Positions 36,435-42,194 of a stretch of 64,000 bases of DNA are shown one piece after another. A model generated the notes under the pieces. The model was not told where the DNA came from. It saw nothing but the letters and a program-made list of their open reading frames with translations, and searched no databases. The first letter of the stretch is position 1, and the number at the start of each line of letters is the position of its first letter. The translations under genes were made by a program, and so were the position numbers. The DNA lies in the IMG/VR virus record IMGVR_UViG_3300025320_000152, positions 1-64,000 of that record; one strand, 5' to 3'. The DNA comes from a virus (lineage: Duplodnaviria > Caudoviricetes).

Positions 36435-38135
36435 ATGTCGATGATGTTCCCGTCGCCGAGCATGCGGGCTGCGGCATCCGACCTGACCATTTCGATTTCA
36501 CCACTCGGTCTAGTCGAATTGGCCGATGAGGAATTCGAAGTTCATGGCCCACGTTTGAACAGGTACGCCACTAACATGGCGTTTTTCTTGGGTCATCATT
36601 GGGGCTATCGTCGGGAATCGGGAGAGCCGCAGCTCACGTTCAACTACGTGGGCGCGTTCTCCCGGTACCTGACGAACTTCTGCTTCTCCAAGGGAGTGCA
36701 CTTCTCCAGCGAGAAGGCGACCGAGCACATTGTGCCAGCTCTTCTCAAGCGTATCTGGGAGGTGGACAACAACAAGCCGAAGCTGCTCCTGGAGCTGGGG
36801 GAGCTCGGCGGTGTGAACGGTGACGCATTCGTCAAGATCGCGTATGAGGAGCCATGGGAAGATGCCTCTGGCCTGGTACATCCCGGCCGCGTGCGACTCC
36901 TAGCGCTGAATCCGGCATTCGTCTTCCCGGAATATCATCCACACGATCCCGAGCGCCTCATTCGCCTGAAACTGAAATATCGCTTTTTTGGCACGTCCAC
37001 CGAAGGAACTCGCAGTGTATTTACTTACACGGAGATCATTACGGATGAGTCCGTCGAGGAGTTCATCAATGATGAGCTGATCGACTCGCGCAAGAACGCA
37101 CTCGGGCAGATTCCTGTCGTGCACATCGCGAATATCCCGGTCCCGGGTAGCCCGTGGGGGCTGTCGGATATCACCGACATCATCACGCTCAACAGGGAAT
37201 ATAACGAACAGTGCACGAATATCGCGGACATCGTGAACTACCACGCAGCGCCGATCAATGTGATCTACGGCGCCAAGGCTACCAACTTGGAAAAGGCACC
37301 GAAAAAGCTGTGGGCGGGCCTTCCCAAGGATGCTCGGGTCGAGACCCTCGATAACGGGATCGACCTGGAGGGGCCGCTGGCCTACCTGGAGCTGATCAAG
37401 AGGGCGATGCACGAGCTGACCGGTGTGCCGGAGACGGCGCTCGGCCAGGTCCAAGCGATCAGCAACACCTCGGGCGTCGCCCTGGCCATGACTTTCCAGA
37501 CGACGATGCTGCGCTGGCACTACAAGACGACCCAGTACGGGTCCGGCTGCCAGAAGATCAACGCCATCGCGCTGCGCACGATGTGGATCTACGAGCCGGA
37601 CACCCGCAGGTACGATCCGGCGCTGGAGGGCCTGAAGACAGAGGACTACCAGGCTGACGAGATCGACCCTATGGACGCGGCGAACTACCGCACTACGTGC
37701 GAGTGGCCGCCACCGCTGCCGGTCGACATCCTCGTGCTGCTCAACGAGATCCAGTCCAAGCTCGGCTTGGGGCTGATGTCCAAGCGCGGGGCGCTCAAGG
37801 CCTTGGGTGAGGAGTTCCCCGAGGACGTGCTGGCGGAGATCTTCGACGAGGCGATGGACGAGGCCAAGTACCAGGGTGCACTTGACATGCTCAAGGCATG
37901 TATATCTAGTGCTATTCTCCAGGAGACAGGACTTCTGCCCGAGGGGATGGAAGTTCCGCCGCCCGCGCCGCAAGGCGAGGGGGCACCCGCAGCAGGCCCG
38001 ATGCCGGGAGTACCCGGTCGCGGCGGCAGCGGGGATATCAAGGCTCTACAAGACCGACTCGTGGCACTCTCGGCAGGCACCGTTCTCGCGGGCCAGCTGC
38101 GTAATCCGGACAACAGCCAGGATTCGGAGACGTGA
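36435..38135 (+). CDS. portal protein (SPP1 gp6-like)
   Basis: 566 aa between terminase and scaffold; NFC, GDAFVK, GQIPVVHIAN, SG.AL motifs. Confidence 0.88.
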   Translation: MSMMFPSPSMRAAASDLTISISPLGLVELADEEFEVHGPRLNRYATNMAFFLGHHWGYRRESGEPQLTFNYVGAFSRYLTNFCFSKGVHFSSEKATEHIVPALLKRIWEVDNNKPKLLLELGELGGVNGDAFVKIAYEEPWEDASGLVHPGRVRLLALNPAFVFPEYHPHDPERLIRLKLKYRFFGTSTEGTRSVFTYTEIITDESVEEFINDELIDSRKNALGQIPVVHIANIPVPGSPWGLSDITDIITLNREYNEQCTNIADIVNYHAAPINVIYGAKATNLEKAPKKLWAGLPKDARVETLDNGIDLEGPLAYLELIKRAMHELTGVPETALGQVQAISNTSGVALAMTFQTTMLRWHYKTTQYGSGCQKINAIALRTMWIYEPDTRRYDPALEGLKTEDYQADEIDPMDAANYRTTCEWPPPLPVDILVLLNEIQSKLGLGLMSKRGALKALGEEFPEDVLAEIFDEAMDEAKYQGALDMLKACISSAILQETGLLPEGMEVPPPAPQGEGAPAAGPMPGVPGRGGSGDIKALQDRLVALSAGTVLAGQLRNPDNSQDSET

Positions 38136-38136
38136 C

Positions 38137-38886
38137 ATGAGCGAGACCGACGTGATCACCATTCCCGTCGTACCGCCCGCGCCGGCACAGCCGACTGCCC
38201 CCACCTTCACCGCTGAGGACATCGCCGCTGCCCGGCAGCAGGAGAAGGACAAGCTGTACAAGCGCCTGGAGACGAACCAGGAGACGCTCGGCCAGATGCA
38301 GTCCCAGCTCGCGGTGCTCACCGCGGAGCGGGAAGCGGCCGAGACGGCTCGTTCGGAGGCTGCGGCTGCCGCCGAGGCTGAGCGTGTGGCAAGCGTTCAG
38401 GCACAGATGGACGCCAAGTCGTACGCGGAGACGCGGATCTCCGAGTTCGAGCAGCGCATGGCCGCGATGCAGGCCGAGCGCGAGGCGGAGCGGGCGGTGC
38501 TGGCGCGGGAGCGGGAGTACGGCGAACTCCAGTCCTACCGCGCGGAGCAGATGCAGACCGCCGGCCAGCAGATCGCGCCGGAGCTGATCGATCTCGTGAG
38601 CGGCAACACCCGCGAGGAGATCGACGCGTCGGTGGCCCTCCTGACCGCCCGCACCCAGGCGATCGTCGAGTCCATCCAGACGGCTCAGGCCGCTGCGACC
38701 CCGCCGCGCGGTGTCGCTCCGACCGGCCGGCCGAACGTCGACCCGCTCAACCCGCAGGGGCCGGGCACGAAGACGTACACGGCGCAAGATCTCAAGAGCA
38801 TGTCAATGGGCGATTACATCGCCAACCGTTCGCAACTACTCGGGGCACTCTCCGACCAGGTCCGGCGAAACGGCCTGTACGGATAA
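38137..38886 (+). CDS. capsid scaffolding protein
   Basis: QQEKDKLYKRL coiled coil, LIDLVSGNT.EEI; directly upstream of the capsid gene. Confidence 0.8.
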   Translation: MSETDVITIPVVPPAPAQPTAPTFTAEDIAAARQQEKDKLYKRLETNQETLGQMQSQLAVLTAEREAAETARSEAAAAAEAERVASVQAQMDAKSYAETRISEFEQRMAAMQAEREAERAVLAREREYGELQSYRAEQMQTAGQQIAPELIDLVSGNTREEIDASVALLTARTQAIVESIQTAQAAATPPRGVAPTGRPNVDPLNPQGPGTKTYTAQDLKSMSMGDYIANRSQLLGALSDQVRRNGLYG

Positions 38887-38916
38887 CCATCCATCCCGTA
38901 ACGGAAGGCCCTAACA

Positions 38917-41088
38917 GTGGCCAGTGCGATCACGGGTACGCCGAATCTCTCGGCAAGCCCCACCAACTACTCCGGCAGCAACAGCATGCTGACGCCGGCG
39001 ATCCAGACCATCTGGTCCAAGGAAATCCTCAACGCCGTTCGGTAGGGGACCCCGTCGGGCGACCGGCGGGTAAACACCACGCTGTATCGGTGAACCCCTC
39101 TGCAGTTCGGCAGGGGAATACCGAGGGAACCTAGCGCCTAGGACTCCGTAGAGACTACACGCGAGGCATCTCCCATAGATTCGACCGCCAGGCGCTCACG
39201 CGGCCGAGACTGGAGATGAAGATATAGTCCGACCTGCACCGATAGTAAAGGTGCAGAGGCTGGCAGAAATGACCAGCCCCCGCCGATCGGCCGGGTAACA
39301 AAGTGCTTCCAGGCGATGCCGATCCTCAGGTTCGAGCAGTTCGCTGTCAAGAAGACCGAGCTCGGGGTAGCTCCCGGTCTCACCATCAACTTCATGCGGT
39401 CGATTCTCGGGCTCTCAGGTGCCCGTTGTGCCGCCTGACACGGTGACGTGTCAGTGAAAACCACGCTGTATCGGTGAACCCCACCGCTGCGCCACCGGGG
39501 AATACCGAGGCAACCCGTACCGGGGAGTCCGTAGAGACTACACGCGAGGCGCACTCCGATAGGACTGGAAGGCCGGTATAGCCGACCGGGACTGGAGTCG
39601 AAGATATAGTCCGATCTGCATCGATGGCAAAGATGCAGAGGCTGGCAGAAATGACCAGCCCGCTCCGGCCCTGTCCGGAGCGGTAACAGAAGTGACAACA
39701 ACCTGGGTGATGCGTCGCAGCTCGTCGAGGGCGTGCGCATGACCACCAACGCCCTCACGGCGTCGCAGTTCAGCATCACCGTGGCAGAGCAAGGCTACGC
39801 CGTGGCGGTCACCGAACTGCTGCTCAACGCCTCGTTCGACGACGTCATGGCGAGCGCCAGCCGGCTGCTCGGACGCAACATGGCGAAGTACCTCGACAAC
39901 CTGGCGCAGTCGACGCTGCTCCTGGCGACGTCGCTGATCTTCGGGTACTACAAGGACCCGGCCGCGTCGATCACGGCGAACTCGCCGTACGACCTGGGCA
40001 CGGTGGGAACCTCCACCAACACCCTGACGGGCGGGTACTACTTGACCCCGTCGGCGATCCGCGACATCGGGGAGAACCTCGCGACGCTCAACGTTCCGCG
40101 CATCGGTGAGACCTATGTGTGCTTCGTGCACCCTCACCAGTCGCGGCACCTGCGGGAGTCGCCCGAGTGGATCGAAGTCACCAAGTACGCAGCGCCCGGT
40201 CTGCAGCGAGACACCTTCGCACTGGCCGCCTGATCCAGCAATGGATCAGTGAAAAACCCGAGAATTGCTGGAACATCCTGTTAGACCTCAGCGCCACAGC
40301 GTGGGACGAAAGTCCGAGCGCGACGGCTTGAGAAGCTGAGGGTAGGGACAATCAGCAGCCGAGCCCGTCTGGACTAGCTCCGACGGGAAGGTTCACAGAC
40401 TATGTACGGGTCACCCCACGTGGGTGAAGATATAGTCGGAGCTGCATGGAGACATGCAGAGGCTAGCGGAAACGACTGGCCCCGCGTAGCAATACGTGAG
40501 TAACAAGACTGAACTTCATGCTTGGTGAGATCGGCCGGCTGTTCGACACGATTTTTATCGAGACGACGCAGGTTACGCAGCAGACGAACTCGGCAGCGCA
40601 GCAGGTTTACTCTGCGATCGCCATCGGAGACAACGCATTCGGGCACGCCATCAGCCTTCCCGTCGAGCTGAGGGACGGCGGGGTACTCGATTTCGGACGT
40701 GAGCATGCACTTGCCTATCGTAATGACTGGGCCCTCACGGCGTGAGCCGTGAGTGAAAATTCCGAGAATTGCTGGGAAGCCCGTACCACCTGACAGCACC
40801 ACAGCGTGAGTCGAAAGACTGAGCGCGACGGTTCGAGAAGCTGTCAGCAGGGGTTATCAGCAGCCGAGCCCGCCTGGACTAGCTCCGACGGGAAGGTTCA
40901 GAGACTATGTACGGAATACCTCAATAGATTGAGGTAAAGATATAGTCCGATCTGCGTTCGAGAGGCGCAGAGGCTGGCAGAAATGACCAGCCCACTCCGG
41001 ATGACCGGAGGGGTAACAGCGAGGGTACGCGATCTTGGGAATGGGACTGATCACCAACCAGTCCGTCATCGTCTGCCAGACCAACTGA
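38917..41088 (+). CDS. major capsid protein (HK97 fold, N4-gp56-like), spliced: join(38917..39029,39306..39400,39695..40200,40512..40716,41024..41088), 327 aa
   Basis: exons of 113+95+506+205+65 = 984 nt join in frame to MASAITG...WSKEIL|FQAMPILRFEQFAVKKTELG...NFMR|YNNL...KYAAPG|NFMLGEIG...DFGREHALA|WYAI...QTN*. Confidence 0.92.
39030..39305 (+). ncRNA. group I intron 1 (276 nt, no ORF)
   Basis: 5' exon ends in U, intron ends in G; IGS GGUAG-GGGA; P2 GNRA loop; P7 GACUA / UAGUC; GAAGAUAUAGUCC. Confidence 0.9.
39401..39694 (+). ncRNA. group I intron 2 (294 nt, no ORF)
   Basis: IGS GUUGU-GCCGC pairs with the 3' exon ACAAC and the 5' exon GCGGU (U-G); CGUAGAGACUA; GAAGAUAUAGUCC; terminal G. 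Confidence 0.92.
40201..40511 (+). ncRNA. group I intron 3 (311 nt, no ORF)
   Basis: GAAUUGCUGG / AUCAGCAG P4; GGUUCACAGACUA; GAAGAUAUAGUCG; P2 GCAA loop; U|...G| boundaries restore KYAAPG-NFMLGE. Confidence 0.9.
40717..41023 (+). ncRNA. group I intron 4 (307 nt, no ORF)
   Basis: GAAUUGCUGG / AUCAGCAG; GGUUCAGAGACUA; AAGAUAUAGUCC; IGS ACU-GGGC; U|...G| boundaries restore a Trp codon. Confidence 0.9.
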
Positions 41089-41104
41089 TTCGGAGCTCAT
41101 AACT

Positions 41105-41455
41105 ATGCCGACACAGCGCAAGCGCCCGCAGGATCTCACGGGGCGCCAGACCGAGGCCCTGGCCCGCAAGCGGGACGAGGACGCTTCTCGGGCGGCGGAG
41201 ATCTCCATGGCGACGGCGGCGGCCGAGCGCGAGGAACTGGAGACCGCGGTCATTGACCTCACGGCCAAGCCGGAGATCGAGGACGTCCGTCCGGTCGAGA
41301 TCGCCTCGCCTACCCGCAGGGTGCGTGTCACCGAGGATCTGGAGGACACGATCTTCGGGCACGGGAACTTCTACACCCTGCGGGCCGGCCAGCAGTACGT
41401 GCTGCCGCGTGAATTCGCCGACCACCTCGACCGGCTCGGGTTCGTGCACCACTGA
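41105..41455 (+). CDS. conserved hypothetical protein following the capsid gene
   Basis: KRPQDLTGR; G..Y.LP....DHL...G C-terminal motif. Confidence 0.65.
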   Translation: MPTQRKRPQDLTGRQTEALARKRDEDASRAAEISMATAAAEREELETAVIDLTAKPEIEDVRPVEIASPTRRVRVTEDLEDTIFGHGNFYTLRAGQQYVLPREFADHLDRLGFVHH

Positions 41456-41754
41456 TGGACGCACCCGAGATCGGCGCTTACTACGCGCTGGCCGAGTCAG
41501 CGCGCCTGGGCGAGGGGGACACCGCTCTCCCGCCCGGCGCGCTGGTCAAGGTCGTCAGGGTCGCGCCCCCGGGCGAGCCGGGCGTGGGGCGCAGCGGCCA
41601 CGAGACCGTCATTGCCGAGTACGTCTACGACGTGGCCGGTGTCGACGGGCGCGGGGAGGCTGTGCGAATTTCGCACGTCCGCTACCTGGGTCTTGCCCTG
41701 CCCGCGTTCACCGCGACCTTTACTCCCGCCGAGAGCCCTGAGGGGGTTAGCTGA
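41455..41754 (+). CDS. hypothetical protein
   Basis: ORF overlapping its neighbours by 1 nt. Confidence 0.5.
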   Translation: MDAPEIGAYYALAESARLGEGDTALPPGALVKVVRVAPPGEPGVGRSGHETVIAEYVYDVAGVDGRGEAVRISHVRYLGLALPAFTATFTPAESPEGVS

Positions 41755-42194
41755 TGGCTGGCCAGTTCACGCCCGTGGGCAGTCAGTACGCCTTGGACTA
41801 CCTCTCCGGCACGTTGGACACCAACCTCGCCGGCGGGACGGCGTTCTCGACGTACCTGATGCTGGTCACCGCGCCGCCCTCGAACCTGTCGTCCCTCGCG
41901 ACCTACCCCGAGGTCGCGGCGGCCGGATACGCACGGCAGCCGGTCTCCTGGACAGCGGCGTCGGTCAACTCCTCCGGCGCCTATCAGCTCTCGAACTCGA
42001 CCTCGATCCTGTTCGGTCCGTTCACCGCGGCCTCCGGCATCGGGGCTGCGGCCACCGGTTGCGCGCTGGTGACGACCCTGACCGGGATCATCGGGAAGCC
42101 GCTGATGTACTGGACGTTCTCCACCCCTGGCTCGGCGGGCCAGAACGCCAGCCTGCAGCTGCCGATCGGCGCGCTGACGATGGCGCTGTCGTAA
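41754..42194 (+). CDS. virion structural protein
   Basis: GYARQ.V.W...N...I.FGPF pattern typical of small phage structural proteins. Confidence 0.6.
   Translation: MAGQFTPVGSQYALDYLSGTLDTNLAGGTAFSTYLMLVTAPPSNLSSLATYPEVAAAGYARQPVSWTAASVNSSGAYQLSNSTSILFGPFTAASGIGAAATGCALVTTLTGIIGKPLMYWTFSTPGSAGQNASLQLPIGALTMALS

Follow-up and report, generated by a model that had tools for sequence, protein, structure and literature searches.

Group I introns in the virion genes of actinobacteriophages are known from Cluster J mycobacteriophages, in which BAKA and Optimus carry a 265-nucleotide (nt) intron free of open reading frames (ORFs) in a minor tail gene and LittleE carries an intron with an endonuclease gene in its major capsid gene (Pope et al, 2013; PMC3706429). 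Splicing of the BAKA and LittleE introns was demonstrated by reverse transcription PCR and, for LittleE, also by N-terminal protein sequencing (PMC3706429); a capsid intron of Tuc2009 appears in the same paper as a citation. According to the passages of PMC11878797 and PMC6669764 that cite Landthaler & Shub (1999), the tail tube gene orf142 of Staphylococcus phage Twort contains three group I introns and undergoes exon skipping. Moreover, the genomes of Jug jumbo gut phages each harbor about 18 group I introns, with terL in two to three pieces (PMC12880540), and polymerase genes of Bastillevirinae contain up to three (PMC11878797). Here, we analyze the major capsid gene at 38917-41088 of a 64,000-nt window, which comprises the first 64 kb of the 82,930-bp IMG/VR record IMGVR_UViG_3300025320_000152 (Duplodnaviria; Caudoviricetes). 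With a probability of about 0.87, as judged from sequence comparison, the four inserts in this gene are genuine group I introns, which belong to one mobile family and are selfish elements acquired separately.

Since its introns belong to a widespread mobile family that interrupts capsid, portal, and tail genes of related actinobacterial phages, the locus is a rich example of something known rather than a system of a new kind. In sequence, introns 1 and 2 are homologous to the BAKA and LittleE introns, with the same P2-P9.2 layout, the same GUAACA tail, and a location in actinobacteriophage virion genes. In contrast to the single intron per gene in those mycobacteriophages, four interrupt one gene here, two of them with a second type of core (type B), and the host gene belongs to an unrelated, BRock-like capsid family. 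As far as the cited descriptions of Twort orf142 go, both genes encode highly expressed virion proteins and harbor several small group I introns that lack ORFs and must all splice, whereas Twort has three introns to the four found here and a low-GC host. The introns of Jug phages and Bastillevirinae are likewise many, small, mostly ORF-less and located in essential phage genes, with endonucleases that are either free or intron-borne. However, they are distributed over many genes, mainly those of DNA metabolism and terminase, while all four introns lie in the capsid gene here and a scan of the 83-kb record with the group I covariance model RF00028 yields no match besides them. The sequence-only reading that drew attention to this locus had placed phage group I introns mostly in nucleotide-metabolism and replication genes. 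This agrees with PMC11878797 but leaves out the LittleE and Tuc2009 capsid introns, the BAKA tail intron, and Twort orf142.

The identity of the interrupted gene is established by its exons. Exon 3 alone matches Pfam Phage_capsid_4 (31.8 bits; cut-off 27) and is about 70% identical to annotated major capsid proteins in six Streptomyces phage records that represent five phages (LuckySocke, Alone3, BRock, pSt2308, and GiJojo), all with uninterrupted capsid genes. The exons sum to 984 nt, corresponding to 327 codons and a stop codon without any internal stop, and the spliced 327-residue protein shares 241 of 327 residues (74%) with the LuckySocke capsid. In the alignment with the intron-less capsids of LuckySocke and BRock, none of the four junctions shows a gap, and the sole gap falls into a variable loop away from the junctions. 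The junction peptides that the sequence-only reading had restored on paper, and for which it had named this comparison beforehand, are contiguous in these intron-less homologues. Upstream of exon 1 lies GGAAGG, a motif resembling a ribosome-binding site, and a search of the record for a second capsid copy found none. By these comparisons, the interrupted gene is the record's single major capsid gene. Its unspliced frame runs into a stop codon at 39043-39045, 16 nt inside intron 1, so that only fully spliced RNA would encode the capsid protein, as had been proposed. Recomputation also reproduced the coordinates and lengths of the inserts (276-311 nt), the stop-free frame, and the excess of intron DNA (1188 nt in total) over exon DNA.

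The splice sites follow group I rules throughout. Each intron is preceded by an exonic T (U in the RNA) and ends in G, possesses a GNRA-capped P2 (GCGA, GUGA, GCAA, and GUGA in introns 1-4), and contains GACUA/UAGUC as well as (A/G)AGAUAUAGUC, all as described before. Additionally, the last four to five exon bases pair in all four cases with a guide located shortly before P2 to form P1, with a U.G pair at the cut. In intron 2, the guide is contiguous, as GUUGU, which pairs with ACAAC of the 3' exon in P10, directly precedes GCCGC, which pairs with the 5' exon; P1 and P10 thereby comprise 5 bp each. For intron 4, an alternative boundary 2 nt downstream also fits the U/G rule and yields AYY instead of AWY. 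The boundary listed in Table 1 is favored by the tryptophan of the homologues, the P1 pairing, and the GUAACA-N4-G spacing. The terminal guanosine (omega-G) and the contiguity of the restored peptides in intron-less homologues together point, by comparison, to exact ligation.

The GUAACA element occurs 4-5 nt before the terminal G of every intron (39292-39297, 39680-39685, 40497-40502, and 41010-41015) and is invariant in 40 aligned relatives of both core types and in BAKA. A helix between the guide and the GGU of the GUAACA tail, which RNAalifold proposed, never varies and is uninformative; we do not claim it. Introns 2 and 3 have a common guide, GCCG, and both their 5' exons end in CGGU. Because of this shared guide and exon end, skipping of exon 3 is conceivable: mis-pairing of the two guides could remove its 506 nt and shift the frame.

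Group I identity is further confirmed by the covariance model and by covariation. RF00028 aligns all four introns over model positions 1-253, and introns 3 and 4 exceed its gathering cut-off of 50 bits (scores in Table 1). Relatives were collected with a 24-nt P9.1 piece that is common to introns 1, 2, and 4 and occurs exactly in 64 other IMG/VR stretches. Profiles of both core types gave 121 intron hits in the fetched loci, and 18 full-length type A and 22 full-length type B sequences were aligned per core type. RNAalifold recovers P2, P3, P4-P6, P8, P9, P9.1, and P9.2 in both types, and a three-helix P5 extension with a GAAA cap in type B only; P7 was added as a pseudoknot for the pair counts. 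The type A alignment comprises 68 pairs with 94.7% of cells paired and 49 pairs changed on both sides, and the type B alignment 81 pairs with 98.8% of cells paired and 47 pairs changed on both sides. In either case, none of 500 shuffles scored as high, and slid controls reached 36-40% (type A) and 31-39% (type B) paired cells. The P3-P9 core is thus backed by covariation in 40 relatives on other viral contigs. The P7-adjacent pair, which reads C..G in intron 3 but G..C in the other three, had been pointed out as covarying from the four introns and does so over the 22 type B sequences as well (GC 13, CG 6, AU 2); in BAKA, it is C..G. Intron 1 matches the type A profile with E=5e-80 (nhmmer), forms P1 with the U.G pair, and shares in the covariation of its type A alignment.

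Table 1. Coordinates of the interrupted capsid gene, the portal gene, and endonuclease ORFs of related introns (positions without a locus prefix refer to the window).
Feature	Position	Strand	Description	Support
Capsid exon 1	38917..39029	+	113 nt, GTG start, 3' end ...AUCCU	N-terminus like LuckySocke/BRock from residue 2
Intron 1	39030..39305	+	276 nt, type A (compact core, BAKA/LittleE family), guide GGGA 39046-39049	RF00028 31.5 bits
Capsid exon 2	39306..39400	+	95 nt	frame and homologue alignment
Intron 2	39401..39694	+	294 nt, type A, guide GCCGC 39430-39434	RF00028 26.5 bits
Capsid exon 3	39695..40200	+	506 nt, 168 codons from 39697	Pfam Phage_capsid_4; capsid homologues
Intron 3	40201..40511	+	311 nt, type B (extended P5 domain), guide GCCG 40225-40228, outer P7 pair C..G	RF00028 69.2 bits; type B covariation
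Capsid exon 4	40512..40716	+	205 nt	frame and homologue alignment
Intron 4	40717..41023	+	307 nt, type B, guide GGGC 40729-40732	RF00028 58.1 bits
Capsid exon 5	41024..41088	+	65 nt including stop codon	frame and homologue alignment
Portal gene	36435..38135	+	uninterrupted	Pfam SPP1_portal E=1e-16; synteny with LuckySocke and BRock
P8 endonuclease ORF	L090:9140-9820	intron's own	Endonuclease_7	
P8 endonuclease ORF	L095:4082-4750	intron's own	Endonuclease_7	
P8 endonuclease ORF	L097:9785-10453	intron's own	Endonuclease_7	
P8 endonuclease ORF	L118:234-899	intron's own	Endonuclease_7	
P8 endonuclease ORF	L142:6346-7110	intron's own	Endonuclease_7	
P8 endonuclease ORF	L145:2844-3587	intron's own	Endonuclease_7	
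P8 ORF	L127:2155-3105	intron's own	DUF559/HTH	

The introns form a family with two core types and a common P9-P9.1-P9.2 tail, and the BAKA and LittleE introns known from the literature fall into type A. Over 200 nt, introns 1 and 2 show an identity of about 72% with those of BAKA, Optimus, and LittleE, and the BAKA intron aligns with both from end to end; this homology to introns of demonstrated splicing adds to the case for group I identity. For introns 3 and 4, the similarity to the BAKA/LittleE family is confined to the P7-P9.2 part. Their type B core was found in no isolated phage record, and intron 4 yields only a short match of 76% in crAss-like phages.

The distribution of the family is sporadic. 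Introns are absent from 76 of the 80 closest capsid homologues in IMG/VR, and the other four contain one each. Capsid homologues retrieved by the intron motif carry two introns in three loci (L094, L101, and L135) and three introns in L107 (with its copies L110 and L130) and in L137. Moreover, two or three introns of this kind interrupt prophage capsid genes in the genomes of isolates that belong to Streptomyces, Kitasatospora, and Saccharothrix. Strains with a homologous multi-intron prophage include Streptomyces sp. NPDC020379, which has introns at window sites 1 and 4, S. rimosus NRRL WC-3904, Kitasatospora sp. NPDC052896, and Saccharothrix sp. ST-888. The site of intron 1 is also occupied in a Streptomyces prophage (L164), and that of intron 2 in L031. 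The introns nearest to intron 4 (80-84% identity) are those of L101, L137, and L123 at the identical position of the capsid gene, while the nearest relative of intron 2 (85%) is located at capsid site 33 of another contig and that of intron 3 (88%) in a portal gene (L122:2879-3190). As the nearest relative of every window intron resides on another contig and the siblings within the window are only 72-75% alike, the four would have been acquired separately and not by local duplication.

Junction reconstruction reveals 12 distinct intron sites in the capsid gene (33.3, 37.7, 46.3, 51.7, 69.3, 98.7, 129, 138, 238, 252.7, 300/301, and 306.3 in window-protein numbering). Ten of them follow GGU, and eight of these ten follow CGGU. 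GGU accounts for about 10% of the U positions in these genes, which gives a binomial probability of about 8e-9 for sites that are not fully independent. Introns of both core types at GGU sites carry the complementary guide GCC(G), whereas those at the two CCU sites carry GGG, and near-identical introns are found at different sites and in different genes. Guide-directed insertion, or at any rate a filter for P1 compatibility, would lead to such use of one guide at many sites. We therefore put forward, tentatively and with the odds somewhat against it, that in BRock-like phages and prophages of actinobacteria, the capsid gene may be a hotspot for one intron family, with 12 or more sites and up to five introns per gene among the examined loci, where the guide rather than an endonuclease picks new sites. 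Among the papers searched, none describes this hotspot or a phage gene with at least four introns, and there was nothing specific on multi-intron capsid genes of Streptomyces phages or other actinobacteriophages.

Several further loci of the family were observed. A homologous capsid gene on the minus strand of L123 (5664-8014; IMGVR_UViG_3300049781_000089) contains five introns, three of type A and two of type B, at sites 33.3, 46.3, 98.7, 138, and 307, and all its junctions restore conserved peptides. The portal gene at L122:2105-4354 is interrupted after about residue 37 by a type A intron and after about residue 177 by one of type B, while portal genes at L139:1567-4347 and L044:124-2643 contain inserts of about 1 kb at about residues 165-200, which the intron profiles do not recognize. 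At L139:6429-7165, 735 nt separate capsid exons 1 and 2, and only about 270 nt of these correspond to a recognized type A intron; upstream of it, some 460 nt are left, which may represent a second, unrecognized intron or another insertion. Further, the phrog_13692 gene (unknown function, about 490 residues) holds several family introns in L108 (5445-9672), L089, and L150, and their number reaches four or more in L108. When 20 exons upstream of family members were scanned with Pfam and PHROGs, the results were almost blank, giving one Phage_capsid/phrog_10 head protein and three phrog_13692 matches. The exact 24-nt P9.1 module additionally occurs in genomes labelled Chloroflexota, Acidobacteriota, Planctomycetota, and Sulfuricaulis and in a metagenome-assembled genome of a Hadarchaeota archaeon. 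In the loci concerned (L155, L157, L161-L163, L166, L168-L170, and L172), the intron profile matches with its 3' half only. Either the module or a wider clade of introns thus extends far beyond actinobacterial phages.

In the proposed course of events, a late transcript over the portal, scaffold, and capsid genes would carry all four ribozymes, as family membership suggests. Each ribozyme would fold, bind guanosine in P7, cut after the U.G pair, and ligate the exons by guanosine-initiated two-step transesterification, and only RNA freed of all four introns would encode the 327-residue protein. The introns themselves would be selfish, endonuclease-less mobile elements that were gained independently and persist as neutral or selfish passengers. 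In agreement with the earlier description of the introns as ORF-less, none of the ORFs in or over the four introns matches Pfam, which argues against intron-encoded endonucleases, and a search across the record for four Pfam families (HNH, Endonuclease_7, DUF559, and GIY-YIG) found none of them.

Type B relatives, in turn, contain Endonuclease_7 (PF02945) ORFs of 220-255 residues in the P8 loop, and one P8 ORF is of the DUF559/HTH kind (Table 1). An allele that already holds an intron resists the homing endonuclease cognate to it. The introns of the window might hence be retained as armour, each disrupting the target of endonucleases brought in by co-infecting relatives and so saving the capsid gene from cutting or overwriting. 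Conservation of the DNA at the insertion sites is above average (percentiles 64-99.7) and other phages have introns at the same sites, and both observations speak for such protection. However, none of the endonuclease-bearing relatives found was placed at one of the four window sites, no cleavage specificity is known for their endonucleases, and the difficulty of precise loss explains retention equally well. We regard this account as unlikely, though deserving of consideration.

Several observations weigh against the interpretation as functional selfish introns. Introns 1 and 2 stay below the RF00028 cut-off (E=1e-5 and 4e-4, respectively, from a 2.4-kb search). Yet the spliced introns of BAKA and LittleE score 28.6 and 30.7 bits with the same model, and because these fall into the same range, the sub-threshold scores appear typical of type A. 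The absence of endonucleases is defined by the four Pfam families in a record of 84% completeness, and efficient splicing in vivo is inferred by comparison. Finally, IMG/VR labels the record a provirus, which, together with its incompleteness, would fit a defective prophage whose introns are inactive and whose capsid gene is a dead remnant that can no longer be expressed. In such a remnant, one would hardly expect 984 nt of exon sequence without a stop or frameshift, 74% identity to functional capsids, guides that still match their exons, and core helices that are all paired in each of the four introns where relatives vary. We consider decay of this kind very improbable.

The sequence-only reading had gone further and suggested that the obligatory splicing events could act as a guanosine/Mg-dependent gate or timer on capsid assembly. 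In this rival account, the dependence of capsid synthesis on guanosine and Mg levels or on time would have been selected to control assembly. In its favor, all four introns must leave, unspliced RNA terminates early, and introns have been floated as 'molecular on-switches' for other phages (PMC11878797). Our data lend it no support. Most of the nearest homologues lack introns altogether, their number and sites vary, the same family enters portal and tail genes, and relatives carry endonuclease genes. Moreover, a search of 38800-41200 for aptamer and riboswitch families (E<=10) found none and returned only weak sub-threshold matches to small nucleolar RNA, CRISPR-repeat, and long non-coding RNA families. 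The peripheral helices are ordinary hairpins common to the relatives, so that no fused sensor, as expected of a ligand-gated ribozyme, is discernible. The sporadic presence, the varying number and sites, and the endonuclease-bearing relatives rather point to selfish mobile elements than to a conserved regulator, and we attach very little credence to a gate or timer.

The source of the record is an aquatic metagenome, and the uncultured phage is BRock-like, high-GC, and probably actinobacterial. In a search of sequencing runs for the locus, no RNA run turned up, and the sole run that covers it in full is the probable source metagenome. The order of portal gene, ORF at the scaffold position, and capsid gene is the same as in LuckySocke and BRock, and a megablast search of 38000-42000 against isolated phages found no near-identical phage DNA. 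Although the exact 24-26-nt modules shared by the introns and the metagenomic origin could favor a chimeric contig, such an artefact is practically negligible as an explanation: a second assembler run on the same source data produced one 15,983-nt contig (Logan) that spans 38000-42000 with 0 differences and even depth, so the four-intron arrangement is not a mis-assembly, and multi-intron capsid genes of the same family are found in the Streptomyces, Kitasatospora, and Saccharothrix isolates.

The introns described here, probably selfish and separately acquired, have consequences for annotation and for the understanding of the family. Gene callers fragment this capsid gene, and recognizing the introns mends its annotation in this record as well as in numerous related contigs and prophages. 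With four introns in one phage gene, the published range extends beyond the three found in the papers searched, and the homologous gene of L123 has five. The picture that emerges is that of one family with two core types, with and without endonucleases, at a dozen sites in one gene, and with a rule that links guide to site. If the guide indeed selects the sites, this would constitute a clear comparative signature of guide-directed intron transposition, of the reverse-splicing type, in phages. As copies exist in cultured Streptomyces, Kitasatospora, and Saccharothrix, both the way in which endonuclease-less introns spread and the question whether they protect genes against homing endonucleases are directly testable at the bench.

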